A DNA stretch of 26,133 nt from a virus. Taxonomy: Duplodnaviria; Heunggongvirae; Uroviricota; Caudoviricetes; Crassvirales. A program made the position numbers and the translations under genes. The stretch spans positions 74,182-100,314 of the IMG/VR virus record IMGVR_UViG_2974789010_000001; one strand, written 5' to 3'. Positions 2 to 26,064 of the stretch are shown piece by piece; the stretch's first letter is position 1; every line of letters starts with the position of its first letter. The notes beneath the pieces are model-generated. The model saw only the letters and a list, made by a program, of their open reading frames with translations, was not told the origin of the DNA and searched no databases.

Positions 2-457
2 CTATTATTAAGAAGAATATTTAAAGGACCTAGATATACTATTGGAAAACTCTTCATAAATGGTGTTTATGAGTGTGACACTTTGGAAGACCAGGATAGA
101 GGATTAACAAGTCAAATGTCACTTGAAGAGATTAAAGCTAAGAAGGTGTATGGGGTAACAGCAATTCCTACAGGTACATATAGTATTAATATGACTACTG
201 TAAGTCCTAAGTTCAAGGATAGAGCATGGGCTAAGCCTTATAAAGGCATACTTCCTAGACTAGAGAATGTAAAAGGGTATGAAGGAGTACTAATACATGT
301 AGGTAATAAAGCTGAGGATACATTAGGTTGTATCCTAGTTGGAGAGAACAAAGTTAAAGGTCAAGTCATTAATAGTACAGCAACATTCTATGAGTTAATG
401 ACTGTATTATTGAAGGCTCAAAGTGCAGGAGAAGTAATAGAACTGACTATAGAATAA
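2..457 (+). CDS. DUF5675-family protein (YkuD/L,D-transpeptidase-like His/Cys motif), putative peptidoglycan-acting enzyme; 5' end lies outside the window
   Basis: The frame of the 83..457 ORF is open back to base 2 (LLLRRIFKGPRYTIGKLFINGVYECDTLED...), resembling the typical DUF5675 N-terminus. Codon 83 is TTG (Leu in DTLED), not a real start. Contains LIHVGN...TLGCILVG. Ends TAA followed by TGA. Confidence 0.7.
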   Translation, partial: LLLRRIFKGPRYTIGKLFINGVYECDTLEDQDRGLTSQMSLEEIKAKKVYGVTAIPTGTYSINMTTVSPKFKDRAWAKPYKGILPRLENVKGYEGVLIHVGNKAEDTLGCILVGENKVKGQVINSTATFYELMTVLLKAQSAGEVIELTIE

Positions 458-10712: not shown

Positions 10713-13700
10713 ATGGTAATGAAAAGTTCACAACATATAATTAAAGGTATGACTAGAGACTTAACAGTCTCAAAGTTCAATCCAGAGTTTGCATATGAAT
10801 GTAAGAACATTAGAATAACTGCAAGAGATAACTCAACTCTACTAACAGTTACTAATGAAAGAGGTAATTCTGAGTTATCCATCCTCACTTCTAATGGTAA
10901 TCCTCTTCAAGTGCTAGGTACTCTCATAGGATATAATGTCTTGAATAACTATGTTACTTTGTTTACTACTGGTGATAAGGATAGGATATATAGGTTGGAG
11001 AATAAGCAGACTTACTTTGAAGGCAAGCTTCTTTATGAAGGTAACTTGAACTTTAATGTCAATAATCCTATTGAGAATATCAGTGTATATGAGAATGATA
11101 ACATACAGAAAGTATATTGGATAGATGGGTTAAATCAGTCTAGAGTTATAAACATTGTAGCTGATAGCACTGTTAGTGGAAGTTGGAATGATAGTTCATT
11201 TGACTTTGTACAGGACCTTGAATTAAAAGAGACTGTAACTGTAGTAAGAGATGACTTAGCTAGTGGTTCTTTCTCCTCTGGAGTTATACAATATGCTTTT
11301 ACATACTATAATAAGTATGGTCAAGAGAGTAACATATTCTATACTTCCCCTATACAGTATATTTCTTTTGCAAGTAGAGGAGCTTCACCAGAAGAGAAAG
11401 TTAGTAACAGCTTCACTATTACTATAGCTAATCCTGATACAAGATTTGATTATATAAGAGTGTATTCAATACATAGAGCAAGTATAGATGCTACTCCTAA
11501 TGTATTAAATGTAGTTGATTTGCCTATTAATGCAGCTAATGTAAGAGCAGGTGAGACACTTACTTATACTGATAATGGCACTATTGGAACCAATGTTGAC
11601 CCTACTGAACTTCTATATGTAGGAGGTGAAGAAGTAGTATTTGGTACTATGACTCAAAAGGATAATACACTATTTTTAGGTAATGCTGATATAAAGAGAA
11701 AGTTAGTTGGACCTGATATTATTAACTCTATTAAAGGTGGTAATATTAGCTTTAATCAAAGATATGTAGGTAACTATGTAAGAACAGCAGGATATTATCC
11801 TTATAAGAATAGCCTATACCTAGGCTCTAAGATTAAATCCTTCAAGTATCTTGAGTGGTACAGATTTGGTGTACAATTTCAGTATAAGAATGGTAAGTGG
11901 TCAGAACCAATATGGATTAATGATGCTTATAATGGACCAGCCTCAGGAGGCATGGGATATGGAATATCACCATCTTATAATGGTGCTTTAACAACTGTTC
12001 AAGCTAGTTATTCATTAAACTCTGATATAATCAATAAGGTAGTTGCACAAGGTTTCATAAGAGCTAGAGGTGTAGTAGTATATCCTACTCTTATAGATAG
12101 AGAAGTAGTTGCACAAGGTATTCTATGTCCTACTGTTTACAATATAGGAGATAGATTTGGCAATTCACCTTTTGCACAATCTTCATGGTTTGCAAGACCT
12201 AATCTAGCATTTGATATTGAAAGAAATAAAAGTAACTGGAATGGTATTGGTACTTTATTTGGAGACTATGATAAGTCTAAGGCAGCAGTAATCAGTAATA
12301 AGAATGTGAATCTTACTATAGACCCAGGAACTCCATCAGCAAAGACTACTCTTATTGATATAGTTAACAAAGGGGCATGGGCTGAGTTCAGACATAATAA
12401 ACCAGTTCCTAACAACTGGGAAAGAAATGCTGAGATACAATGTATAGCTAATACACCTGCTGGTCCATATACTGCTAGTAAAGGTTCTGAGTTGAATAGT
12501 TATACAGCAAATCATGCTGAATACTTCTTTGTAGACCAGAATATACTTACACTTCATTCACCAGATATTGAATTTGATGAAGGAGTTCAGAACTTAGATT
12601 CATCAGGTCTTAAGCTAAGAATAGTAGGTGTAGTACCTATTACAGCTAATGCTTCTGAAATAGATATACAGACCTCAACTCCTGCTAATGATACAAGCAA
12701 GATGGGATTCTATAAGGAGACTATAGGTTCTGAGAATAATTCATATCATGGATTGAAGAATCTTATCTCTGGTGCATTCTGGTTTGATAAGATGACTAAT
12801 ATGAAGAATGTAGATGATGACCACGGATATACAGAATCATTCTTTGTATATGCTTGGCATAGAAATGGTTCTCTAAATAATCAAGGTCCTGTTACTGAGG
12901 GTTCTAGAACTGCAATGCTTGATAAGAAGAAGATTTCTAACTTGAAATTCTCCTCATTCTCAAAATATTTTAATGAGCCTTGGCTGGCATATAAGGCTAA
13001 TGATGCAACTCACACTGGCATTACTGGTGTTAGTATATTCAACTCAAATGAGCAATCTTTAGTAAGAATACCAGCCCCTGCTAACTCAAATCTTGGAGAT
13101 TTGAACTATTATGGTAATGTAGATAAAGTAATTGCAGCAACTAGAGTTGATGATGCTTATTCACTTACATTTGATTTCTCTGATGGCCCAAAAACTGAGG
13201 AATTCAATAGAAAGAATGGTTATCCTATAGTTGTGACTGGTGTTAATACTGCTGAATCTCTTGCTCATCAACTGTTTACTGGAGGTACATTCCCTATACA
13301 GTTTGTAAAGAGAAGTGATGGTGCTACTCTTACAGAAGTACCTAATGGTACTGATGCTGTAAGAATGAAGTATAAATCAACTCCTCATGCTGTATTTGCA
13401 TTAAACTATGCTACTGATGGCAGACAGATAGTAATGCCTACTAATAGAGAGACTGACTATACAGACTATTGGAATGTTAATGATGCTAATGTAACTAAAG
13501 GAGGTGTTAATCACTTCTTCTGGAATCCTACAGCTAAATCTATTAGTGAAAGTAAGACTCAGATAAATGATGGTGTATTTCAAGATGTAATCTCTGAATA
13601 TACAAGTAACCTAACGGATAATAACTATAGTTACTTATATCTTGCAGAGTTATATAATGATAATATTACTAATAGATTTGGTGGTCAGACAGAAGAAGCA

Positions 13701-15113
13701 TTTGAGAATAATATATGGCTTCCTGGTGGAGAGCCTATTAATCTTCTTAATGCAGATGGAACTCCTGTAAGTTATGCTAGCCTTACATATACAGAAGGTG
13801 ATACTTTTCTTGAAAGATATGACTGCCTTAAGACATACTCTTATACCCTTGAGGACCAGAATAGTGTTACTGAGATTGTATCATTCATGTGTGAGACAAG
13901 AGTAAACATTGAAGGTAGATATGATAGAAATAGAGGTCAGCTCAATAACTTGACAATGACTCCTGAAAACTTCAACAAAGTAAACAAGGTGTATAGTCAG
14001 AAGAATAACTTCTTTAACTATAGAGGTATCAATCATAGTAAGTTTAACCTAAACTACTTCCCTAATACAGTTACTTGGACTAAGGAGAAGCAATTAGGTA
14101 GCATTATTGATACTTGGACTAATATTACTATGGCATCTACTCTAGACCTTGATGGAGATAAGGGTGAAGTAATATCATTGAATACTTATAACAATGAGAT
14201 ATTCTGCTTCCAAAGAAAAGGATTCAGTAACATCTTATTTAACTCAAGAGTACAGATACCTGCATCTGATGGTATGCCTATTGAAATCACTAATGGTATG
14301 AAAGTTAGTGGTAAGAGATATGTTAGCAATACTATAGGATGTAGTAATAAGTGGTCTATAGTTGAGTCTCCTTCTGGTCTTTACTTCATTGATAATGAAA
14401 CTAATTCAATGTATCTGTTTAATGGAGAAGTGAAGTCAATCTCAGATAGTCTTGGTATGAGACAATGGGTTAATGAAAATAATACTCATATAAACTGGAA
14501 CCCTGTTACTTATGAGAACTTTAGAGGATTCTATGATAAGAATAACAATGATGTGTACTTTGTTAATAACAACTGGTGTCTATGTTACTCAGAGTTAATA
14601 GGTCAGTTTACTTCTTTCATGAGTTATGAAAGGGTTCCAGCTATGTTTAATGTAGGCAGTGAATTCTATGCTTTCAATAACAACAAACTATGGCAACAGT
14701 TTAATGGTGATTACAACATGTTCTTTGGTCAGTATAAACCTTATAGTATTACTGTAGTAGCTAATGCTGATGAGCCTGCTGATAAGATATTCAATACTGT
14801 TGAATTTAGAGCTGATGCTTATGATGGTGATAACCTTGCTCCTACTAAAACTTATGATACACTTGATGTATATAATGAGTATCAACATGGTAGAGTAACA
14901 TTAACTGACTTAAATGGAAGACCTTCTCCTTTAAAGAGAAAGTTCAGGATATGGAGAGCTAATATACCAAGAGCTAATACACCTATTAATGGTATTCCAG
15001 CTAATAATAGAGATAGAATTAGAAATACTTGGGCATATGTTAAACTATCAACTGAAACACCTAATACATATAGAACAGTGTTCCATGATATGACAATACA
15101 TTACTTTGTATAA
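10713..15113 (+). CDS. Muzzle / tail stabilization protein (P22 gp10-like)
   Basis: 1466 aa, beta-rich. KGMTRDL...FAYECKNIRIT N-terminus, VYWIDGLNQSRVIN, SGVIQYAFTYYNKYGQESN and KRKFRIWRANIPR...DRIRNTWAYVKL C-terminus, all typical of the crAss tail stabilization family. Confidence 0.85.
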   Translation: MVMKSSQHIIKGMTRDLTVSKFNPEFAYECKNIRITARDNSTLLTVTNERGNSELSILTSNGNPLQVLGTLIGYNVLNNYVTLFTTGDKDRIYRLENKQTYFEGKLLYEGNLNFNVNNPIENISVYENDNIQKVYWIDGLNQSRVINIVADSTVSGSWNDSSFDFVQDLELKETVTVVRDDLASGSFSSGVIQYAFTYYNKYGQESNIFYTSPIQYISFASRGASPEEKVSNSFTITIANPDTRFDYIRVYSIHRASIDATPNVLNVVDLPINAANVRAGETLTYTDNGTIGTNVDPTELLYVGGEEVVFGTMTQKDNTLFLGNADIKRKLVGPDIINSIKGGNISFNQRYVGNYVRTAGYYPYKNSLYLGSKIKSFKYLEWYRFGVQFQYKNGKWSEPIWINDAYNGPASGGMGYGISPSYNGALTTVQASYSLNSDIINKVVAQGFIRARGVVVYPTLIDREVVAQGILCPTVYNIGDRFGNSPFAQSSWFARPNLAFDIERNKSNWNGIGTLFGDYDKSKAAVISNKNVNLTIDPGTPSAKTTLIDIVNKGAWAEFRHNKPVPNNWERNAEIQCIANTPAGPYTASKGSELNSYTANHAEYFFVDQNILTLHSPDIEFDEGVQNLDSSGLKLRIVGVVPITANASEIDIQTSTPANDTSKMGFYKETIGSENNSYHGLKNLISGAFWFDKMTNMKNVDDDHGYTESFFVYAWHRNGSLNNQGPVTEGSRTAMLDKKKISNLKFSSFSKYFNEPWLAYKANDATHTGITGVSIFNSNEQSLVRIPAPANSNLGDLNYYGNVDKVIAATRVDDAYSLTFDFSDGPKTEEFNRKNGYPIVVTGVNTAESLAHQLFTGGTFPIQFVKRSDGATLTEVPNGTDAVRMKYKSTPHAVFALNYATDGRQIVMPTNRETDYTDYWNVNDANVTKGGVNHFFWNPTAKSISESKTQINDGVFQDVISEYTSNLTDNNYSYLYLAELYNDNITNRFGGQTEEAFENNIWLPGGEPINLLNADGTPVSYASLTYTEGDTFLERYDCLKTYSYTLEDQNSVTEIVSFMCETRVNIEGRYDRNRGQLNNLTMTPENFNKVNKVYSQKNNFFNYRGINHSKFNLNYFPNTVTWTKEKQLGSIIDTWTNITMASTLDLDGDKGEVISLNTYNNEIFCFQRKGFSNILFNSRVQIPASDGMPIEITNGMKVSGKRYVSNTIGCSNKWSIVESPSGLYFIDNETNSMYLFNGEVKSISDSLGMRQWVNENNTHINWNPVTYENFRGFYDKNNNDVYFVNNNWCLCYSELIGQFTSFMSYERVPAMFNVGSEFYAFNNNKLWQQFNGDYNMFFGQYKPYSITVVANADEPADKIFNTVEFRADAYDGDNLAPTKTYDTLDVYNEYQHGRVTLTDLNGRPSPLKRKFRIWRANIPRANTPINGIPANNRDRIRNTWAYVKLSTETPNTYRTVFHDMTIHYFV

Positions 15114-15223: not shown

Positions 15224-17911
15224 ATGGCTAACAAGAGAATTATAAGAAGAAAGAATAGACCATTAAATATATTTGCAGATGGAGGGCCAGTTGGCAGTCT
15301 TGCATCCCTAGCTAATACAACTGACTTATCTAAGATTACTACATTAGGTCAAGGAGGTGCATCAGGTTCTGTAAGAATGCAATCAGTTGGTACTTCTGCC
15401 AGTGGAGGTGGTGGATTTAATATGGGTAGTATTGGGGGTATAGGTTCCTCTGTTGGAACTATAGTAAATGCAGGTCTATCTAATGCTCAGATAGCTGATA
15501 CTAGTGCTCAAGAAGAAGGTATTAAAGCTCAAAAGAATATGGTAGTAGGTGCATCATCAAACGATGAACTCATGAGTGAATGGGGTTCTTGGAACAAATC
15601 TAAAGATGACTATACATGGAAGGATGTTAGAGGTGGAAGTACTGGTCAGCGAATTACTAATACTATTGGAGCTGCTGGTCAAGGGGCTGCTGCTGGAGCA
15701 TCTGTTGGTGGTCCAATTGGTGCTATTGTAGGAGGTGTAGTAGGCTTAGGTTCCTCACTTGCAGGTTGGTTTACTGGTAACAGAAAAGCTAAGAAGAAAG
15801 CTAAGAAACTTAATCAACAAGCTAAAGAAGCTAATGAAAGAGCAATGAGTTCATTTGAACTTAGAGCTGATAATATAGATAAACAGAATGACTTCAATCT
15901 ATTAGCTAACTACTCAGCATTTGGTGGTGTGCTTGGGGGAGGTGCTATTGACTATGAATTGGCTACTAAAGCTTTAAACAATAAACAATTAGATGCTATG
16001 AGTAAATTCAGAATGCCATCTATGCCCAACTCATTTGAAGTATCAGAGTTTGGTGTAGATTACTTTGCAAAGGGTGGCAACTTATCCAGAGATAAGGACT
16101 ATGGTTCCAAGAAGAAACCATATCCAATGGTTCCTGCTGATGACTTTGCAGGTCCACATAGAAGCTATCCTATACCAACTAAGGCTAATGCCAGAGATGC
16201 ACTTAGATTAGCAGGACTTCATGGTGATAGTAGTGTTAGAGCTAAGGTATTAGCTAAGTACCCTTCACTTAGAAAGAAGGCTTTTGGTGGAGAGTTATTT
16301 AATACTAATTCTATAATTGGTGGTAGCTTAGGTTCTAATATTCAAAATGCTATTGCACCTGCTCAAGAACAAACTTTAACTGTTTCACCTATGAATACAT
16401 TCAAAGATGGAGGTGGTATTCATATTAAGAAAGCTAATAGAGGTAAGTTTACTAAATACTGTGGTGGAAAGGTTACTTCTGCTTGCATAGCTAAAGGTAA
16501 AAGAAGTAGTTCACCTGCTGTAAGAAAGAGAGCTACATTTGCAGCTAATGCAAGAAAGTGGCACGCAGATGGTGGTTACATGGGGTATAGTTATGATGAA
16601 AACTATGCACCTATAGGTACTTTATATACAGGAGCTTATGACTCTTTAACTACTCACCCAGATGCTCTAACTAATGGTGGAGTATTTAGTGATGGAGTTA
16701 CAGTAGTAGGCGAGGGTGGAAGCCATGAAGAGAATCCTTTAACTGGTGTGCCAATGGGTGTAGCACCTGATGGTCAACCTAATTTAGTTGAAGAAGGTGA
16801 AGTAATCTTCAATGATTATGTGTTTAGTAATAGATTACATCCTAGTGAAGAGCTACTTAAATCAGTTAATCTTCCATCTAAATACAAGGATAATACCTTT
16901 GCTTCTATAGCTGAAAAGATTAATAAAGAGCCTAAAGAAAGACCTTATGACCCTATTGCTAGGAGAGGTTTACTTGCAAATATGTCTAAGTTAATGCAGG
17001 CTCAAGAAGAAGTTAAAGCTATAAAGGAAGCTAAGACAGAAGGAAGACAGTTTGCTTATGGTGGTGATACTGATTGGGACCCAACTTTATTAGATGACTC
17101 ACCTTTTACATGGGAAGACTATGTGGCATCTCAAGGAGATGCAGATACTAAGCCTAATGATACTCAACCTTCTAGTACTAGAAAAGGTATAGGATTAGAT
17201 GCTCTTAGATATGCACCTGCTTTAGGTGCTGGTGTTGGAGTAATATCAGACCTATTTGGATGGACTAATAAACCAGATTACAGTAATGCTGATATGATTG
17301 TAGATGCAGTAAGCGGATTACCTACTATTGAAGCTGAACCTATTGGTAACTATCTATCTTATAATCCATTTGATAGAGACTTTTACATTAATAAGCTCAA
17401 TCAACAATCATCAGCTACTAGAAGAGCTTTACAAAATACATCAGGTGGTAACAGGCTTAATGCTCAGGCTGGAATACTTGCTGCTGATTATAACTATGGT
17501 CAAAGCATAGGTGATTTAGCAAGACAAGCTGAGGAATATAACTTAGCTCAAAGAGAAAGAGTTGAGTCCTTTAATAGAGGTACTAATCAATATAATAGCG
17601 AGTCTGCACTTAGAGCTGCTGGTATGAACCAACGGAACAGAGAAATGAAGCTTAGAGCTATAATGCAAGCTGCTGGTATGAGAGAAGAAGCAGGTGCTAG
17701 AAGTAGTGCAGCTAAGAGTGCCAACTTAACAAACTTCTTTGATAGTTTAGGTGATATTGGTAGAGAGGAGTTCAGTAGAAATATGATTGAATCCAATCCT
17801 GCACTTGGCTATACTATTGATAGAAGTGGTAAGGTTAGATACAAGAAACCTAAGAGTGGTACTAAAAGTAAAAAGAAAAGTAAGGGAGGATATTTGACTT
17901 ATGGCAAGTAG
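15224..17911 (+). CDS. Putative cargo/ejection protein 1 (internal virion protein with a glycine-zipper hydrophobic segment)
   Basis: 895 aa, G/A/S-rich, with a hydrophobic GxxxG segment, repeated FxxGG motifs and a helical Q/N/A-rich C-terminal third. First gene after the muzzle, as for crAss cargo genes. Confidence 0.7.
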   Translation: MANKRIIRRKNRPLNIFADGGPVGSLASLANTTDLSKITTLGQGGASGSVRMQSVGTSASGGGGFNMGSIGGIGSSVGTIVNAGLSNAQIADTSAQEEGIKAQKNMVVGASSNDELMSEWGSWNKSKDDYTWKDVRGGSTGQRITNTIGAAGQGAAAGASVGGPIGAIVGGVVGLGSSLAGWFTGNRKAKKKAKKLNQQAKEANERAMSSFELRADNIDKQNDFNLLANYSAFGGVLGGGAIDYELATKALNNKQLDAMSKFRMPSMPNSFEVSEFGVDYFAKGGNLSRDKDYGSKKKPYPMVPADDFAGPHRSYPIPTKANARDALRLAGLHGDSSVRAKVLAKYPSLRKKAFGGELFNTNSIIGGSLGSNIQNAIAPAQEQTLTVSPMNTFKDGGGIHIKKANRGKFTKYCGGKVTSACIAKGKRSSSPAVRKRATFAANARKWHADGGYMGYSYDENYAPIGTLYTGAYDSLTTHPDALTNGGVFSDGVTVVGEGGSHEENPLTGVPMGVAPDGQPNLVEEGEVIFNDYVFSNRLHPSEELLKSVNLPSKYKDNTFASIAEKINKEPKERPYDPIARRGLLANMSKLMQAQEEVKAIKEAKTEGRQFAYGGDTDWDPTLLDDSPFTWEDYVASQGDADTKPNDTQPSSTRKGIGLDALRYAPALGAGVGVISDLFGWTNKPDYSNADMIVDAVSGLPTIEAEPIGNYLSYNPFDRDFYINKLNQQSSATRRALQNTSGGNRLNAQAGILAADYNYGQSIGDLARQAEEYNLAQRERVESFNRGTNQYNSESALRAAGMNQRNREMKLRAIMQAAGMREEAGARSSAAKSANLTNFFDSLGDIGREEFSRNMIESNPALGYTIDRSGKVRYKKPKSGTKSKKKSKGGYLTYGK

Positions 17912-19319
17912 ATATATAGTAAACAATAGTAAGTTTAAGCCTTTCTCTTATACAGAAATGCTTGCTCCAGTACAGATGGCTGATACTGAACACAAGCTTA
18001 TTGAAGAAGGTTTAGGAGAGATGTCTGCAAAGGCAGGTATGTGGGATAAGTTAGCTGACCAGCAAACTAGTCCTGTAGCTTATGCACAATATAAAGCCTA
18101 TGCAGATGACTTGACTAAACAAGCAGACCTCTTAGCCAGACAAGGTTTAACACCAGAAAGTAGAAGAGGTTTGTTAAATATGAAGAGAAGATATGCTAGT
18201 GAAATAACTCCTATTGAATTAGCTGCAAGTAAGAGAGAAGAGTTAACTAAGGCTCAAAGAGAAGCTATCCAAAGAGACCCTTCTTTAATGTTTGATGTTA
18301 ATTATGGTACTGCATCTATTGATGATTTATTGAATAATCCTAATGCTACTTATAATACTATCAGTGGTTCAGAATTAACTAAGAGAGCTAGTACAATGGC
18401 TCAGAACTTGGCTAAGACTATTCAAGATAATCCTCAGTATTCATCTATACTTGGTGGGCAGTACTTTCAACAAATGCAGCAGCTTGGTTATAGTCCTCAA
18501 CAGGTTATGCAGACTATAATGAATGACCCTAATGCTCCTAAAGAATTGAAGCAAGTAGCTGATACTATATGGCAGGAATCTGGTCTTGATACATGGGACC
18601 AAGCTACTCAATCAAGAGCTAGAGACTATATTAATGCTGGTTTATATGATGCTATTGGTACTCAAAGATATGATACTCAAGCTAATAGAGGTTATATGAG
18701 TCCTGCTGAGTCTGCTAGATTAGAGATGGAGAAAGAAAGATTTAACTTAGCTAAAGAACAAGCAGCTAAAGATAAGAGTACTATTCCTCTTCAAGATGGT
18801 TCTGTAATCAGAGTAATTGGTGGTGGAAAGGCACTTAGAATATATCCAGATGGCAGAGTTGAAAACTATGCTGGTAATAGTGGAATAGCAGGTGCAGGAG
18901 TTAAAGATGCAGCTAAGAGAGGTGATAAGCCTATTATCATTGCTAATACCAATGGTAAATGGAGAACAGGTGAAAAGGGAGAAGATGTAAAAGGTACTTG
19001 GTTTGGTATGACTAGAAGTAATGCTGCATCTACATGGGGTAACTATACTCTTGATAATGTGAATGTCAATGATATAGTAACTAACTACAATGAAATACCT
19101 AAGGGTGCTCTTGATGAAATGTTGAAAGTAGCTAAAGAACAAAATATAGACTTAGATTTATATGATGTAGTTAGAGTGAAAGCTTCTACTGGTAGAGCAG
19201 CAGGTGACTATGATTATGTATTAATGCCTAAGCAAAACATACCTCAAGCACCTATAGCAGCTCCAGCTACTCCACAAGTAGTTGATAGTATCAATTTTGA
19301 TGTAAATACAGGATTATAA
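17901..19319 (+). CDS. Putative cargo/ejection protein 2
   Basis: 472 aa; FKPFSYTEMLAP N-terminus, helical and Q/A-rich; 11-nt overlap with cargo 1. Assigned by synteny. Confidence 0.6.
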   Translation: MASRYIVNNSKFKPFSYTEMLAPVQMADTEHKLIEEGLGEMSAKAGMWDKLADQQTSPVAYAQYKAYADDLTKQADLLARQGLTPESRRGLLNMKRRYASEITPIELAASKREELTKAQREAIQRDPSLMFDVNYGTASIDDLLNNPNATYNTISGSELTKRASTMAQNLAKTIQDNPQYSSILGGQYFQQMQQLGYSPQQVMQTIMNDPNAPKELKQVADTIWQESGLDTWDQATQSRARDYINAGLYDAIGTQRYDTQANRGYMSPAESARLEMEKERFNLAKEQAAKDKSTIPLQDGSVIRVIGGGKALRIYPDGRVENYAGNSGIAGAGVKDAAKRGDKPIIIANTNGKWRTGEKGEDVKGTWFGMTRSNAASTWGNYTLDNVNVNDIVTNYNEIPKGALDEMLKVAKEQNIDLDLYDVVRVKASTGRAAGDYDYVLMPKQNIPQAPIAAPATPQVVDSINFDVNTGL

Positions 19320-19320
19320 T

Positions 19321-22300
19321 ATGGAAGGATTAGAAGGACTAAAGGGTTTAACAGCTCAAGATAGACAGAACTGGGAGAAGGAGTATTCCACTAAGATAAA
19401 GGGGCTTACTCCTGACCAGACTGAAAGAATGTATAGAAATGTCAAGTTCAAGGAGAAGTTTGGTAATAGGCCAGACTATAATATAATTAAGAATTATACT
19501 CCTGAACAAAGAGATAGTCTATACAATGAAGACTTGTTTAAGATGCAGCCTCTAGAAGCAGAACATACTGATGAGGAACAAGTTAAAGCTATTGGTAAAG
19601 CCTTTGAGCAGGGTCAACAATTTCAAGAAGAAGCAACTAAGCTTGATAGTATTTATAACCAATGGCCTGCTAGAGGTAGAAAGGCCCTTGATGAATTTGA
19701 TAAGATAGCTGATAATGTATCTCCTTATTATAAGAGATACAAGAACACTGAATACTTGCCTTTCTCTGATGAAGAGAAGTATAAGATAGCAGCAGAATAC
19801 AATGCTGCTAAGGCTGCTTATGGAGAGCAGGAAGCTAATAATATACTTAGAAGGAAGATGCAAGATACTGCATCAAAGAACCAAAGTGTATTTGAGAAGT
19901 TCTGGAATGGATTTAAGGGTATGGGTGCTCAAACAGCAGGTGCTTTAATAGGTACTGCTGGCATGGTTAAAGGTGCTATTGACTATGTTGGTGATGAAAG
20001 AAATGAAGACATTGATAATGCTTTCTTTGATTTCATGGACCATGTTATAGATAATAGTTGGACTAGATATGGCAATGATGTAATGCAGTATGGCAGCTTA
20101 TTTGATGCTAATATTCAAGAAGCTAAAGAGAATGGTGGTATGTCTAACATACCAGTAATTAGAACACAAGCTGAGGAACAAGGTACTATTCTTGATAACT
20201 TACTTAGTGTCAATACTATACCAGAACTTATTAATCAGCAAGGTTTTACAATAGCATCTATGCTTACTGGTGCTGGTCTTTCTTCTATATCAAGTAAGGC
20301 ATTTCAAGGTGCCAAAGGTTTGACTATGGCTGCTAATAGGGCAGGTGCTTTAACTAACCTTGAAAAGGTTAATACTATACTTAAAGGACTCCAACAAGTA
20401 CAACAAAAGACTAATGCTTTCCTTATTCCTGCAATGGTTGGTACTGTTGAAGGGGTAAGTGAAGGTCTTAATACTAAGATACAGTTCCTTGATGATGCTA
20501 AGCAAATGATTGCTGAAACACAAGCTAAGGCAGTTAATGATGAGTTCAATAAGAGATTACAGAACCCCGAAGAACTTAGCAGACAAGGCTATAATCCACA
20601 GGATGCAAAGTCTATGGAGAAACTATATAAAGATATTTATGATAGTTATGCTCCTAGATATGAGGAAGCTGTTAAGAAAGCAGAGGTAAATGCAGCTAAG
20701 GCAGGTGTATATAACATGGGTCTTAACTCCATGATTAATGGTGCTCTTAACATGACACTAAAAGCTGGTCTTCAAACTCCTTCTGTGCAAGAAGCTATGA
20801 GAAGAAGTAGGTTAGGTAGGTTATTTACACCACAAGACTTTAGAGTAGAAGCAGGTAGAGTGGTTCCTTCTTATGGGAGGATAGGTAAAGTACTTAATGT
20901 ACTTCAAGAACCTGCTGGTGAGTTCACTGAGGAATATCTTCAAAGTGTATCTGATGCCTTTTCAAGAGGTGGTGCTGAGTATAATCTACAGAACTTTATT
21001 ACTAATAAGTATAAAGGTGATGGTAAGGATGCAGTAGATGAATCTCTTGCTAATGACTTCTTTGCAGCAAGTAGAGCAGCAGGTGATGCAATGATAGATA
21101 AAGAGACTATTCTCTCTGGTATCTATGGTGCTTTAGCCTCTGGTATGGGTACTCCTACTATTAATAATAGAAGAGGTCCTGCTATCAGAAGAGAGGATGA
21201 GTCTAATCTTAGTTATGCTATGAGAAGGTCTCCTATTACATATAGAAATCCTATATGGGAAGCTATTCAAGAGCAAAAAGAAGCTAGTGAAGAAAGGTCA
21301 ACTGCTGCAAGTATAATGACTGATTGGATACAAGACCCAGCTAATAAATCTAAGTATGATGGACTGGTTGGTACTCTTAACTGGGCTAAATCTATGGATG
21401 AAGCATCAGGTAGAAATGATGAATTTGACTATAGAAACAGTGAATTAGGTAAGACTATTAATGATGTTATGACTCTTGAGAAACTAAGAGGAACAGACTA
21501 TTATAACTCATTTATGCAGGACTTGATTAGAACTGCTAACCTTGAAGAAGGTTCAGAAGAAGCTCAAGCTTTAGTCCAACAATTCAAGAATGCACCTAAC
21601 AACAGAGATATTGAACAAGATGATTCTCAGATACTTTCTACTATAAAGAAGAATAGCAATAGACTTCTTGATACTATGAGCAAGATAGCTACAGAATCTG
21701 AAAGTATTGATAAGATGTTAGGTAATGCTGCTGATGAAGATACTAAACAAGCTCTTATTTATGGTAAGTTAAGTGTTGATTCATGGAGAGAAAGAGCTAC
21801 ACAGCTTGAGAATGAAATTAGTAGCATCTCTATTAATCCTACTACTTCAAGTAGCCTTAATGACACACAGAGAGATTTGTTAATTAACTATGGTTCATTA
21901 GGTAAAGCTCATTCTGAATATCAGAAACTGAGAGAAAAGATTGGTGAATTAGAGACTGATATAGCTAATATTAATAGTAGAAAGAACTTAGGAGTAAAAG
22001 AAACTGAGACTCTTAGAGCTAAGAAAGTAGCCTTAAAGACTTTAGAAAAGCAAGCTAAAGCTATTGCTAAAGTAGGTGAGACTATTGAGGGTAATCCTGT
22101 ACTTAGTGAAACTGATATAATGCAGCTTAATCCCACAGATAGAGCTACCATCCTTAACCCTGAGAATAAGAATAAGTATAGTGAAGAACAACAATCTATT
22201 ATAGATAATGTAATAAGAGAAGGTACTTTACAATACAATGATTTCATGGATAAGGTACAAGATGCTGGTAGAATTAACTTGGCTCAACAAGCTTATTTAA

Positions 22301-25300
22301 CTCAATATAACAGCATACTTAGTAACCCTGCAAGCTTTAATGCTTTTGTTAATAGAATCAAGCAACAAGTTGCTGATGATAATACAAAGAAGAAGTATGA
22401 ATTCTTGAATGGAGTACAGGACTATGCTACTTTTGTCAAAGGATTAGATAAAGCATATAGAGAATCTGATGTAAGAGAAAGACAGGTTATCAGAAACATA
22501 CTTAGTGAGAATGAAAACTACAAGAGATACCTTGAAGATAATAAGAACCTTGAGGGTATGTTTGACCAGTTAGATTCTAATGATAAGTTCAAAGAACTTG
22601 ATGAGAATGATAGAAATGTCATAATGACTACTATGCAATTCTTAGTTGATAGAGGTGTTAGTCCAACTGATGTTACAGCATTAGCTGCACTTACTGCACA
22701 AGATGAGAATGGTACTCCTGCTTTGCTTAACTATATTGATGAAGTTAATGGTAGATTGCCTAGTGATATGCAATTAACTCCTGCAAGTATAGAGGAGATT
22801 GTACAGACTTACAATGATATAATAGGTGAGCATACTAAGAACATCAATGAAGTTGAAGTTGTTAACAAGCCAGTAGAAGTAGCTCCTACAACTACAGAAG
22901 CATCTAAGCCTCCTGTACAAGTTGGTATCTTTGGTCAAATACAACAGAATCCTGAAATGGCTGCTGATAAAAACCTTAAAGAAGATACCTCTGCACCTGC
23001 TAAACCAGGAATCTTTGGTGATATTCAAAGTAATCCAGATTTAGCTAGAGGAGTAGCACCAGAGTCTACAACAGATACACCTACAACTGATTTAGTTGAC
23101 AAGTACAAGGTTAACAGTAATGAAGAAGTAGCTAATAGTGTGCAGACAGGACTATCTATTATTGATAACTCTTCAAGTATTTATGATGATGTTAAAGAGC
23201 AAGCCACTCAAATTATAGATGAACTTGGAGATAGTGAGTATGAAACTCCTACTGATTTAAGTGAAGCTATTATGGCTAAGGCTAATCAGCTACAGGCACA
23301 AGTACAACAAGGTGGAGATAATAATGATAAAGCATCATCATTATTAAAGCAGGTTGCAGCTAAGATGAAAGTTAAATCTGAGACTCCTACTACTAAAGTT
23401 GAAAGAGCTGAAACACCTTCAACAGTAAGTGAAGAGAGGAGAAACAACAGTATGATAACAACTGCTGATGTTGATAGACATCCTCAATCTGTTGTAGGTC
23501 AAGCATCTAAGAACTTTAAGATGAATGACTATCTTAGAAAAGGTTATATTACTCCTAAAACTCCTATCATGTTTGTTGCAGACCCCGCTATTATAGCAGG
23601 TGTTAAACAAGAAATGGGGGAAGCTTATAATGAGAGTGACCATCTCCCTATAATGGCAGTTGTAGAAGATAGTAATGGTCCTATTATTATAGGTGATAAG
23701 AAGTACCAGCCTATTGGTTTTATGCCAAGAACAAGTGCTAATTCACAAGGTGCAGCTAGAATGGAACCAGTTAGATTGGCTGGTTTAACTCAGCAAGATG
23801 GTACTTTATTGAAGGATAAAGATGGCAAGGTTATTACAACCAATGGTTATGTAAGAGCTAATCCACCTGAGCATACTAAGGCAGGTACTCCTAATACTTT
23901 GATACATACTATCATGAGTAATGATATGGATGCTGAGTCCAGAGCTAAGATGAATGATGTTAACTTGCCTATACAAGAAAGACAGTCTATTTATAGAAAG
24001 TTCAAGAACAGTATCTTACCTAATATCAGAAGAGTTGCACAAGATGCTAAGGGTGAGAGAATACATTTAGCTTATTTCACACCTAATATGAAGGGTGGAG
24101 AACAAGAGTTTGAGTTATATGTAACAACTCCTCAAAACTCCTTCTCTAGAGCAGGTAAACCAATGGCTCAAGTATTAACTGAGGGAACTCCAGAAGAAAT
24201 ACTAAAAGCTAATAGTAGACTTCATAGATATGGAAAGACACTTGAAGAGTTCTTCAAGAAGAAGCCTTTTAGTGATAATGCTAGGTTCAAAAGAGAGAAT
24301 GGGGTGTTAGTACCAGTAGGTGAAAGTGCATCTAAGTTGCAGACATTAGGTGAAAGTCTGACTAAGAAGTTAAGTAACTATATTACTATTCCTAAAGGAT
24401 ATGAATATGTACTTACTCCTACAGAAGAGATGCTTGAAGGTAATAGAATGTATCAATTAGCTTTAACTAATGGTGCTAGTACTATACCTTTAGCCAATGT
24501 AACTAATGGCACGATGACTGATGAAACTAAAGCTCAAGCTATTAAGAACTTGTTCATTGATGGTGGTAACTTTAGATATGAGGGTACTCAACCATTTGCT
24601 AAGTGGCAAGTTAATTATAATGACTTTGGTGCTAAAGAAGGTGAGTCTGAGGATGCTAGAAAGGCTAGATTAGGAAATGCTAGTGATATATTTGATGATA
24701 ACATACTTGAATCAAGTAGAACTTCATTGAAGTACACTATCAGAGGTATTGATATTAATAGTCCATTCAAGCAAGATGGTAGCAGAACACCATCACCTAC
24801 ACCAGTAGTTGCTAATCAAGTTAATGCTACAACTAGCAAACCAATTGATACTCCAGTCATTACAGCTACTGACCAAGTGAAAGTAGGTAATGCTATAGTT
24901 GATAGTGAGTCTGGTGCTGTATTACAAGGTGAAGTTAGACCTGTATCTAATCCTGCTGTTGATAAGGCTAGAGATATAGCTAATAGAATAGTTGAAGATA
25001 GTAAATCTATTAGATTAGCTGATGATAATTCTGGTTATGTTGATGAAGAAGGAAGAAGATATGCTAGAGTTACTTCTATCATTCAAGCTGATGAACTAGC
25101 TGGTGAAAGATTTGACCCTAATAGTCCTTGGATTACACCTTCAACTAATATAGGTACTTCTGTAGATGAGTTTGTAAGAGACTTCTTTGCAGGTGAGTTT
25201 ACTGGAGAAGATGGTAAGTTATTGAATGACTACTTATATGATTATCCTAATGCTACTCAAGCAGAATGGAGAGCTTTTGCTAACCAGTTAGTAGGTCTTA

Positions 25301-26064
25301 AGAACTACCTTGATGCTCAAGGTCTTACAGTAATTCCAAGGGATGTTACTGTTACAGGAACTGTTAAAGTAACTGATACACAAGGTCAGGTACATGAAGT
25401 ACCAGTTGCTGGAACTCTTGACTTACTTGCTTATGATGCTCAAGGTAACTTTCATATCTTTGATATGAAGACTAATAAAAGCGGTATAAGTGAAGAAAAG
25501 AGAAAGAAGTATGCTAAACAAGTCTCAATGTATCAGAAGTTCATTGAAGATAAGTATGGTATTAAGGTAGCCTCACTTAACATTATACCTATTAATGTTA
25601 CCTATCCTGCTCCTGTAGGATTTAGAGATGGAAAGACCAAGTATGAAGTTAGTGAAGGAAACCAACTACTTGCTAATGGTAAAGAGTACAAAGACTCTAA
25701 ACCTATTCTCGAAGAAGTAGGTTCGGTACCATTCACTGATGTAAATATTCAATATGATAAACTTACTGATAGTGAGAAGCAAATGATTACTGATATGTTA
25801 CCAGCAGGTGTAGAGGTTGAGAAGACTGAAATAGTTGAGCCAGAGACTGTAGTTAACAAGAACCTTGGTCTTAAGATGGGTAGAGTTAAGAATAGATTTG
25901 CTAAGCCAGCTAAGAAAGGTAACCTAGTTACTCCATCAGCTAATAACTGGGAGTCAATTAGTGATGATGTTAGGCAAGCTGCTATACAGTTAGGATATAC
26001 CAAGGAATCTTGGAATAGCATGACTGAGGATGAGAAGCAACATCAGAAAGAATGTCTGAGTTAA
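19321..26064 (+). CDS. Giant putative cargo protein with a C-terminal PD-(D/E)xK (RecB/Cas4-like) nuclease domain
   Basis: 2247 aa uninterrupted ORF. Near the C-terminus: YARVTSII...GTSVDEFVRDFF...VAGTLDLLAYDAQGNFHIFDMKT...KQVSMY. A hydrophobic A/G-rich segment lies in the N-terminal quarter. No DxDxD RNA polymerase motif seen. Confidence 0.7.
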   Translation: MEGLEGLKGLTAQDRQNWEKEYSTKIKGLTPDQTERMYRNVKFKEKFGNRPDYNIIKNYTPEQRDSLYNEDLFKMQPLEAEHTDEEQVKAIGKAFEQGQQFQEEATKLDSIYNQWPARGRKALDEFDKIADNVSPYYKRYKNTEYLPFSDEEKYKIAAEYNAAKAAYGEQEANNILRRKMQDTASKNQSVFEKFWNGFKGMGAQTAGALIGTAGMVKGAIDYVGDERNEDIDNAFFDFMDHVIDNSWTRYGNDVMQYGSLFDANIQEAKENGGMSNIPVIRTQAEEQGTILDNLLSVNTIPELINQQGFTIASMLTGAGLSSISSKAFQGAKGLTMAANRAGALTNLEKVNTILKGLQQVQQKTNAFLIPAMVGTVEGVSEGLNTKIQFLDDAKQMIAETQAKAVNDEFNKRLQNPEELSRQGYNPQDAKSMEKLYKDIYDSYAPRYEEAVKKAEVNAAKAGVYNMGLNSMINGALNMTLKAGLQTPSVQEAMRRSRLGRLFTPQDFRVEAGRVVPSYGRIGKVLNVLQEPAGEFTEEYLQSVSDAFSRGGAEYNLQNFITNKYKGDGKDAVDESLANDFFAASRAAGDAMIDKETILSGIYGALASGMGTPTINNRRGPAIRREDESNLSYAMRRSPITYRNPIWEAIQEQKEASEERSTAASIMTDWIQDPANKSKYDGLVGTLNWAKSMDEASGRNDEFDYRNSELGKTINDVMTLEKLRGTDYYNSFMQDLIRTANLEEGSEEAQALVQQFKNAPNNRDIEQDDSQILSTIKKNSNRLLDTMSKIATESESIDKMLGNAADEDTKQALIYGKLSVDSWRERATQLENEISSISINPTTSSSLNDTQRDLLINYGSLGKAHSEYQKLREKIGELETDIANINSRKNLGVKETETLRAKKVALKTLEKQAKAIAKVGETIEGNPVLSETDIMQLNPTDRATILNPENKNKYSEEQQSIIDNVIREGTLQYNDFMDKVQDAGRINLAQQAYLTQYNSILSNPASFNAFVNRIKQQVADDNTKKKYEFLNGVQDYATFVKGLDKAYRESDVRERQVIRNILSENENYKRYLEDNKNLEGMFDQLDSNDKFKELDENDRNVIMTTMQFLVDRGVSPTDVTALAALTAQDENGTPALLNYIDEVNGRLPSDMQLTPASIEEIVQTYNDIIGEHTKNINEVEVVNKPVEVAPTTTEASKPPVQVGIFGQIQQNPEMAADKNLKEDTSAPAKPGIFGDIQSNPDLARGVAPESTTDTPTTDLVDKYKVNSNEEVANSVQTGLSIIDNSSSIYDDVKEQATQIIDELGDSEYETPTDLSEAIMAKANQLQAQVQQGGDNNDKASSLLKQVAAKMKVKSETPTTKVERAETPSTVSEERRNNSMITTADVDRHPQSVVGQASKNFKMNDYLRKGYITPKTPIMFVADPAIIAGVKQEMGEAYNESDHLPIMAVVEDSNGPIIIGDKKYQPIGFMPRTSANSQGAARMEPVRLAGLTQQDGTLLKDKDGKVITTNGYVRANPPEHTKAGTPNTLIHTIMSNDMDAESRAKMNDVNLPIQERQSIYRKFKNSILPNIRRVAQDAKGERIHLAYFTPNMKGGEQEFELYVTTPQNSFSRAGKPMAQVLTEGTPEEILKANSRLHRYGKTLEEFFKKKPFSDNARFKRENGVLVPVGESASKLQTLGESLTKKLSNYITIPKGYEYVLTPTEEMLEGNRMYQLALTNGASTIPLANVTNGTMTDETKAQAIKNLFIDGGNFRYEGTQPFAKWQVNYNDFGAKEGESEDARKARLGNASDIFDDNILESSRTSLKYTIRGIDINSPFKQDGSRTPSPTPVVANQVNATTSKPIDTPVITATDQVKVGNAIVDSESGAVLQGEVRPVSNPAVDKARDIANRIVEDSKSIRLADDNSGYVDEEGRRYARVTSIIQADELAGERFDPNSPWITPSTNIGTSVDEFVRDFFAGEFTGEDGKLLNDYLYDYPNATQAEWRAFANQLVGLKNYLDAQGLTVIPRDVTVTGTVKVTDTQGQVHEVPVAGTLDLLAYDAQGNFHIFDMKTNKSGISEEKRKKYAKQVSMYQKFIEDKYGIKVASLNIIPINVTYPAPVGFRDGKTKYEVSEGNQLLANGKEYKDSKPILEEVGSVPFTDVNIQYDKLTDSEKQMITDMLPAGVEVEKTEIVEPETVVNKNLGLKMGRVKNRFAKPAKKGNLVTPSANNWESISDDVRQAAIQLGYTKESWNSMTEDEKQHQKECLS

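Follow-up and report, generated by a model that had tools for sequence, protein, structure and literature searches.

Cargo protein 1 (C1) of a crass-like phage is built of interchangeable modules bounded by a short aromatic-Ala-x-Gly-Gly motif. The stretch analysed here (the window, 26,133 nucleotides, G000:C1:74182-100314) is the late/structural arm of a crass-like genome that is complete at 100,314 bp and has direct terminal repeats; the stretch is about 99% identical to the uncultured phage cr126_1 (Kolpuevirus hominis, Steigviridae), with 99.1% nucleotide identity for the C1 gene entry. Judged from its sequence, the open reading frame (ORF) at 15224-17911 encodes crassvirus cargo protein 1 and belongs to a known and structurally studied family. 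A phmmer comparison with PDB chain 7qog_M (crAss001 gp45) gave an E-value of 1.3e-266 in two stretches (query residues 51-454 and 483-894), the homology is collinear over the full length, with both the Gly-rich membrane segment at the N-terminus and the helical domain at the C-terminus included, and the Pfam family PF25725 (crAss_CARG1) matched residues 483-611 with 194.5 bits against a cut-off of 27. The gene order is also that expected for C1, with the muzzle gene, C1, C2 (cargo protein 2) and a 2247-residue gp47-like ORF following one another.

The original prediction, made from the DNA letters alone, described C1 as looking like a polyprotein in which FxxGG motifs delimit small modules. 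All eight five-residue motifs that it listed, and the SKGG near the C-terminus, were found where it had placed them and in frame of the ORF (Table 1); the list itself was then adjusted, with LTNGG and HADGG classed as weaker variants and the GG pairs in the Gly-zipper (residues 44-171) set apart as no part of the motif. The pattern 'F..GG or AFGG' occurs six times in C1 against 0.45 expected (about 13-fold), a count reached by none of 5000 shuffles, for enrichment patterns that were chosen after the data had been seen. GG dipeptides number 24 in C1, compared with 12.4 expected from shuffles. Among the 17 ORFs of the window the motif array is present only in C1, the others having 0-7 GG each and at most two loose-pattern matches. 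The context N-x-[FYH]-A-x-GG-x-[LI] was found in none of the other 16 window ORFs, and within this lineage C1 alone carries the motif.

A search of 1.8 billion cluster representatives returned 4350 homologues of C1, of which the best 150 (381-1172 residues) were analysed, and the counts below are given per 151. In these 151 diverse homologues the strict motif has 3.9 copies per protein against 0.6 expected. The logo drawn from 676 instances reads N(-2)-x-[FYH](0)-A(1)-x-G-G(3,4)-x-[LI](+6), with a conserved span of nine residues. Successive motifs are exactly seven residues apart in 56 of 525 pairs, as in YAKGGHLFAGGG and HAFGGYLYDEGGNL, and the unit is therefore a heptad that can be repeated in tandem. 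Both G234/G235 and G613/G614 are at least 90% conserved; G613 reaches that level in alignment A3 and does not vary at all in alignment A2. The motif copies in C1 differ in their codon choices, which means that it is the peptide that is under selection. The idea that identical DNA at the motifs drives recombination was considered and rejected, as the copies differ in codons and share no extended nucleotide identity. Both ends of the protein also bear the motif: a basic leader of the form M.KK..IRR.N..LN[IL][FY]..GG was found within the first 40 residues of 105 homologues, and K.KGG[YK][LI] within the last 30 residues of 110, followed mostly by 3-13 basic residues (range 0-15). The protein encoded after the muzzle gene in cr1_1 (Suoliviridae) and in phi14:2 has few or variant GG sites. 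As the original prediction had supposed, the system appears not to have been characterised in crassviruses, in that no paper on the motif or on a cassette structure was found in the literature searched.

The motifs had also been proposed to delimit self-contained modules that are swapped as cassettes between strains, and BLAST breakpoints, indels, duplications and stand-alone forms all agree with this proposal. With the uncut query, the starts of BLAST high-scoring segment pairs cluster on motifs (45 at residues 390-395 and 61 at 480-485), and so do their ends (69 at 234-239, 29 at 612-617, 17 at 282-293 and 13 at 450-455). Inserts that lack a match in the query start within five residues of a motif in 39% of cases versus 5% for random positions. 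When C1 was aligned with relatives of 58-90% identity, indels and motifs coincided as anticipated, every large indel running from motif to motif: residues 359-392, deleted in loci L012/L013 (89-90% identity), 283-394, with modules M3 and M4 absent, in P0003 (82%), 455-482 in crAss001 (59%), and 233-394 in L040 (58%; modules M0 to M8 are defined in Table 1). Module M5 is present twice in P0007, where the M5-M5 junction reads HAEGGYLYEDGG. In the AlphaFold model of C1 (mean predicted local distance difference test score, pLDDT, 70.4) a confident helix or module ends at each motif and the pLDDT then falls below 50, the low-scoring stretches opened by motifs being residues 234-243, 262-318, 355-397, 449-486 and 611-618. 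The sharp change of composition that had been noted at the marks is borne out by the net charges of +5 for M0, +9 for M3, -2 for M4, +13 for M5, -4 for M6 and -5 for M7. A Phage_lysozyme2 domain, found in 7 of 149 inserts of the variable slot, forms a tail-lysozyme cassette in other homologues, and the lysozyme-bearing insert of P0009 sits between motifs at 259 and 515. A separate observation concerns the C1 homologue P0057, in which residues 172-551 are an intein with a LAGLIDADG homing endonuclease (Intein_splicing, E 2.8e-10; LAGLIDADG_3, E 1.3e-17).

Structural work on crAss001 has placed gp45 residues 425-552 as a domain on the portal wing and residues 214-245 as a helix on rings R1/R2 inside the tail barrel, with a transmembrane helix predicted at 136-158 (Bayfield et al. 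2023, PMC10172136). Virion packaging of C1 and its binding to portal and tail barrel have been shown for crAss001 alone (PMC10172136). M1 aligns with gp45 across this predicted transmembrane helix (AlphaFold helix 140-232), M2 is the equivalent of gp45 214-245 and was detected in 23 of the 151 representatives, and M7 is the CARG1 domain. Since M2 and M7 align to the bound segments of gp45, both are docking segments. The AlphaFold model matched 7qog_M with a Foldseek E-value of 9.6e-7 and a template modelling score of 0.84, normalised by the target, whose deposited chain has 126 residues; 7qog_M was the sole match of the whole-model PDB search. Mapped on the alignment, A425 of N-A-F-G-G is the first residue of the ordered portal segment, which continues past T-Q-G-G, and the barrel helix starts four residues past SAYGG. 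M6 is absent from gp45 (455-482 deleted), which leaves the near-tandem motifs AFGGWLNTQGG.

The suggestion that the modules are small effector or DNA-binding peptides found no support. The module of about 50 residues after SAFGG includes the part that in crAss001 attaches to the tail-barrel rings, the acidic domain with GGSHEENP is CARG1, whose structure on the portal has been solved, and scans of each module against Pfam and PHROG gave no effector or DNA-binding function, the matches being just CARG1 (M7), weak Gly-zipper matches (M1) and phrog_16160 (M3, E 1.6e-5). M3 is present in just four homologues and M5 in 90, and M5 has a pLDDT of 90-97 inside the full-length model. Apart from phrog_16160 for M3, searches of Pfam, PHROG and structures gave neither M3 nor M5 a family or fold match. 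Folded alone (pLDDT 74.6), M5 had no PDB match at E <=0.001 and only unnamed small proteins in the AlphaFold DB, and its Atlas matches were viral hypothetical proteins and a weak DUF6321 lead.

M3 and M5 are also found as small proteins of their own. For M5, the matches listed include 242 small-protein homologues (candidate window 34-111 residues), with 21 invariant residues in an alignment of 120 sequences. These proteins have a leader of 9-54 residues and then [FL]K.G[GSN] immediately before IHIKK; about half of them end 2-3 residues past RKW (many as ...RKWKH), and the rest continue with KHxxGGx[IL]. The stand-alone M3 homologues are 70-103 residues long and start with MPILFKKGG.. or MILKYKKGG.., so that [FY]KKGG follows a leader of 2-6 residues. 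The motif is thus kept on stand-alone M3 and M5, and this argues for a role as a signal beyond that of a linker. In four metagenome contigs of about 172 kb (L004-L007, in which TAG is read as Gln) the M5 gene lies at a divergent gene junction, outside any C1 gene, and next to it are an SLT transglycosylase gene, a second hydrolase-like gene and genes for holin-like small membrane proteins. Because stand-alone M5 adjoins this SLT/holin-like cluster, M5 may perhaps be tied to cell-wall passage.

We hold with moderate confidence that the motif is a joint that stays uncut and doubles as a cargo tag or a docking element. C1 would be the first-ejected internal virion protein of a Steigviridae crass-like phage, and is probably a chain of cassettes that fold independently and are linked by one to three copies of [FYH]-A-x-G-G-x-[LI], usually with N-x before it. 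The aromatic-Ala part would close the last helix of a cassette and the Gly-Gly would break the chain into a flexible linker, and the same heptad would cap the N-terminal basic leader and the C-terminus. By homology to crAss001, the fixed cassettes are probably M1, a membrane-inserting Gly-zipper, M7, the portal binder, and M8, the C-terminal domain, with M2, the tail-barrel binder, as an optional cassette. The slot between M1/M2 and M7 appears to be exchangeable and to take up M3, M5, a tail lysozyme or other modules, which would be gained and lost in motif-to-motif events. The chain would stay uncut after GG, with the motif as both a conserved joint and a recognition or docking tag for cargo; such a tag may serve loading into the procapsid or the tail lumen, or passage through the portal, and the joints may let the small modules unfold and refold singly during extrusion.

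The same observations could be read more simply, with the motif as a helix cap and Gly-Gly hinge only, neither bound nor cut, which recurs through recombination of cassettes at the joints. The position of the motif at helix C-termini and before disordered linkers, the indels that run from motif to motif, and the tandem copies that resemble the fused end- and start-motifs of adjacent cassettes (as at the M5-M5 junction of P0007) are all as such a passive joint would have them. However, the motif copies lack the extended nucleotide identity that could drive recombination, N(-2) and [LI](+6) are conserved beyond the needs of a cap, the N- and C-termini bear the motif as well, and the stand-alone single-module proteins keep it behind a short leader, where no joint is needed. 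We therefore regard a purely passive joint as improbable.

Another reading is that C1 is a true polyprotein. A protease of the phage or the host would then act on all or only some of the motifs, either while the virion assembles or once C1 has been ejected, and would release M3 and M5 and separate a tail-barrel N-terminal piece from a portal-bound C-terminal piece. We think this somewhat unlikely. The original prediction had offered protease sites and docking motifs as alternatives; the docking part fits at least as well, and cutting after GG does not hold at two sites of crAss001. There the density is continuous across AFGG428|W and TQGG435|D within residues 425-552 (PMC10172136), which excludes a cut immediately after GG at these two positions, the other motif sites and a cut before Ala lying outside this result. 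Tandem motifs seven residues apart would also yield heptapeptide waste if each were cut. On the other hand, the logo is conserved over nine residues in the manner of P/P' positions of a protease site, A425, the first ordered residue of the portal-bound crAss001 segment, is motif position 1, and about half of the stand-alone M5 proteins end near motif position 0. From the start at A425 and the ...RKWKH ends of stand-alone M5, a cut, if there is any, is best placed at [FYH]|A, which would be retropepsin-like, and not after GG.

That the chain of C1 is intact is an assumption that has never actually been verified, as a test of linker lengths and a re-reading of a 2018 gel make clear. In the model proposed by the crAss001 study a single gp45 chain passes through the portal, 179 of its residues covering a distance of about 420 Å, and the paper is without the words protease, cleavage or scaffold and without mention of a repeated motif, cassettes or processing (PMC10172136). 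The mass spectrometry in that study came from one excised band, and therefore gives no information on size. We re-analysed the MALDI (matrix-assisted laser desorption/ionisation) peak lists of bands 1-9 (about 70 to >300 kDa; bands 10-13 not included) from sodium dodecyl sulphate (SDS) polyacrylamide gel electrophoresis of crAss001 virions (Shkoporov et al. 2018, PMC6235969). Peaks were matched to the tryptic masses of 24 crAss001 proteins (NC_049977) with internal recalibration and 200 shuffled decoys per protein. The following matches were reached by 0 of 200 decoys: gp47 in band 3 (38 peaks), gp49 and gp44 in band 4 (44 and 17 peaks), the 12-copy portal gp20 in band 5 (11 peaks), gp26 and gp22 in band 6 (23 and 15 peaks), gp22 and gp25 in band 7 (21 and 10 peaks), gp25 in band 8 (14 peaks), and gp23 in band 9 (10 peaks).

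Several results of this kind weigh against an uncut C1 that carries a tag. In none of bands 1-9 did full-length gp45 (90.7 kDa) rise above decoy level (0-3 peaks, P >=0.19), and every other virion protein of 77-97 kDa, including the portal, was found there; proteins of equal size and copy number were thus seen where gp45 was not. This absence is weak evidence, given that fingerprinting of mixed bands can miss proteins, that the copy number is uncertain and that only bands 1-9 were covered. Within these bands no fragment of gp45 was seen either. The distance between the docking segments points the same way as the missing band. Between the M2 helix and the CARG1 core there are <111 residues in 21 of the 23 M2-bearing homologues (median 67, minimum 1), which cannot span about 420 Å even fully extended, and M2 is undetectable in 128 of the 151 homologues. 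With linkers of this length one chain could not be bound at both docking sites, and the threaded picture of one chain at two sites cannot be general if the virion geometry is conserved. Both the missing gp45 band and the short linkers would be expected of a cut protein, or of chains that form two separate populations. In addition, no binding partner of the motif was found, and in the solved structure the copy at 425-428 is the sole one with order.

A further point of the gel stands by itself. We take gp34 and gp40 to be tail-ring proteins of crAss001. In the two top bands (1-2, above about 270 kDa; PMC6235969) the muzzle protein gp44 is accompanied by gp34 and gp40 peptides, and this content indicates an SDS-resistant tail complex even on a reducing gel.

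If C1 is cut, the protease may be one that the phage itself encodes. Two candidates with intact motifs are present in the genome. The first is a 167-residue retropepsin-like protein (G000:C1:19380-19880, minus strand) with an intact LLDTGAT motif, the sequence ILGNSFF and an N-terminal hydrophobic anchor, the gene of which lies outside the window, between the dUTPase and DNA polymerase genes. The second is a 416-residue JAB protein (G000:C1:30576-31823, minus strand) with an intact JAMM motif, HSH-x7-S-x2-D (Prok-JAB, E 3e-4), likewise encoded outside the window. The retropepsin-like gene (DTGA) was found in 51 of the 52 phage records with CARG1, all of them Steigviridae, and since this co-occurrence with C1 lies within one family only, it is not independent evidence. 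Both candidate genes are in the replication module on the strand opposite to C1, and neither product has been reported as a virion protein of crAss001 (PMC10172136, PMC6235969). The literature searched held nothing relevant on the JAB/ThiF pair described below or on an aspartyl protease of crass phages. Family searches of the complete 100,314-bp genome gave no match to C39, S78, ClpP or C48 (clan CE). For C39 (PF03412), the peptidase that cuts bacteriocin-type double-glycine leader peptides, the control matched in 7 of 14 reference genomes, whereas for S77 (PF03420) the control was silent in every control genome, so that the search without a match is uninformative. No recognisable prohead-type protease was therefore found in the genome by family searches, with this reservation for S77, and this too counts against a processed C1. 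HExxH zincin domains were absent from the giant cargo proteins of this lineage, and the gp47-like giant protein (19321-26064) has neither HExxH nor an N-terminal GG tag. In its most specific form, the cut would be made by the membrane-anchored retropepsin-like protease at [FYH]|A-x-G-G, freeing the tail-lumen piece, M3, M5 and the portal-bound piece, and this we consider a long shot.

The JAB gene raises yet another explanation. It adjoins a ThiF/E1-family gene (E 3e-15), and the counterparts of the two genes in cr126_1 are at L001:28420-29670 and 27404-28417; by sequence, JAB and ThiF are a phage-encoded pair of a ubiquitin-like system. In such chemistry the JAB peptidase would expose a C-terminal GG on C1 or its modules, and the adjacent ThiF/E1-like enzyme would activate it for conjugation. 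C1 does end with K.KGG and a short basic tail in 110 of the 151 homologues, formally like the precursor of a ubiquitin-like protein, and the intact JAMM motif stands next to the ThiF-family gene. However, the modules before GG are helical and not beta-grasp, the JAB match of 21 bits is below the Pfam cut-off of 25, the pair lies among nucleotide-metabolism genes with nothing to connect it to C1, and the structure speaks against cleavage after GG at two sites. We consider it very unlikely that C1 takes part in chemistry of this kind.

The full-length homologue in crAss001 (gp45; PDB 7QOG, 7QOI, 7QOJ, 7QOL and 8CKB) is the closest known counterpart of C1, with about 59% identity (MAFFT) and the same position after the muzzle gene. 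The transmembrane/Gly-zipper region, the tail-barrel helix, the portal-binding domain and the C-terminal domain are all shared, as are the motif sites (FDTGG, SAYGG, FAEGG, KAFGG, KDGG, AFGG, TQGG and FAYGG in gp45). Unlike gp45, C1 has the extra 28-residue M6 between motifs 6 and 7 and a longer stretch past motif 1. Further precedents come from other ejected proteins. The internal proteins of phage T4 (IPI-III and Alt) have an N-terminal capsid-targeting sequence that is removed by the gp21 prohead protease, which cuts at L/I-x-E. The likeness is that of a short conserved N-terminal peptide on packaged and injected proteins, and a precedent for a tag that is later cut; the corresponding feature is the leader ending in [FY]xxGG in 105 of the 151 C1 homologues and in stand-alone M3 and M5, and in this genome it is found on C1 only. 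In contrast to C1, in which the tag is also internal and C-terminal and ends in GG, the T4 tag is N-terminal only and needs an S77 protease; this genome has no S78 match, and the S77 search is uninformative. The ejection proteins gp14, gp15 and gp16 of T7 and gp7, gp16 and gp20 of P22 are likewise packaged in the capsid; they leave it ahead of the DNA and have been proposed to build a trans-envelope channel, and the muralytic domain of T7 gp16 is comparable to the tail-lysozyme cassette of some C1 homologues. Unlike C1, these are separate proteins without a shared junction motif, and neither sequence nor fold similarity to them was found, the latter in the whole-model PDB search.

Exchangeable modules separated by a short conserved peptide are also known from proteins that are cut, namely MARTX toxins (with a cysteine protease domain), retroviral Gag-Pol, and pp220/pp62 of African swine fever virus. 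The sites of African swine fever virus and adenovirus are Gly-Gly, and the retroviral protease is a retropepsin that cuts past an aromatic residue. In contrast to these systems, cleavage in C1 is a candidate only, no clan-CE (C48-like) protease was found in the genome, and the retropepsin-like gene is unlinked to C1.

Crassviruses, which outnumber all other phages in the human gut, load and inject a protein cargo of about 5 MDa. A heptad that stands at every module boundary, at both ends of the first-ejected protein and on stand-alone proteins offers a concrete and mutable handle on cargo loading and injection. As a tag, it would determine which proteins enter the virion and could serve to package foreign ones. 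As a cut site, it would call for revision of the published model in which one gp45 chain of crAss001 is threaded through the portal, and a phage retropepsin or JAMM protease would gain a substrate. Should the retropepsin be the enzyme, the cassette slot would be a swappable payload bay for injected proteins, and crassviruses would be the first tailed phages known with retrovirus-style polyprotein processing of ejected cargo.

Table 1. Genes and modules of cargo protein 1 with their positions in the window.
Feature	Position	Strand	Remarks
Muzzle protein gene (context)	10713..15113	+	PF25731 crAss_MUZ and PF25729 crAss_MUZ_C
Cargo protein 1 (C1) gene	15224..17911	+	895 residues, P0001; homologue of crAss001 gp45
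M0, basic N-terminal leader, ends in motif 1 NIFADGG (15272-15286)	15224..15286	+	net charge +5
M1, Gly-zipper/predicted membrane segment and long helix, ends in motif 2 SAFGG (15914-15928)	15287..15928	+	
M2, helix, ends in motif 3 FAKGG (16064-16078)	15929..16078	+	aligns to 7qog_M; AlphaFold helix 243-261
M3, basic 71-residue cassette SYPIPTKANARDALRLAGLHG..., ends in motif 4 KAFGG (16277-16291)	16079..16291	+	isoelectric point 10.2
M4, disordered acidic linker, ends in motif 5 FKDGG (16400-16414)	16292..16414	+	pLDDT <50 at 355-397
M5, very basic three-helix cassette with CGG...C, ends in motif 6 HADGG (16562-16576)	16415..16576	+	isoelectric point 11.2
M6, short acidic disordered insert, ends in motif 7 LTNGG (16667-16681)	16577..16681	+	
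M7, CARG1 portal-binding domain, ends in motif 8 FAYGG (17051-17065)	16682..17065	+	PF25725, residues 483-611
M8, conserved helical C-terminal domain with motif variant KSKGG-YLTYGK (17876-17890)	17066..17911	+	in 151/151 homologues
Cargo protein 2 gene (context)	17901..19319	+	PF25712 crAss_CARGO2, E 1e-183; motif absent

Two other ORFs of the window gave matches of their own. The gp47-like giant cargo protein (19321-26064, plus strand) has a weak match to PD-(D/E)XK nucleases at about residues 1977-2089 (Pfam E 7e-4; PHROG exonuclease E 1e-5). The ORF that enters at the window start (2-457, plus strand) is DUF5675 (E 7e-28), and its counterpart is annotated as an L,D-carboxypeptidase/transpeptidase in crAss001 and cr126_1.

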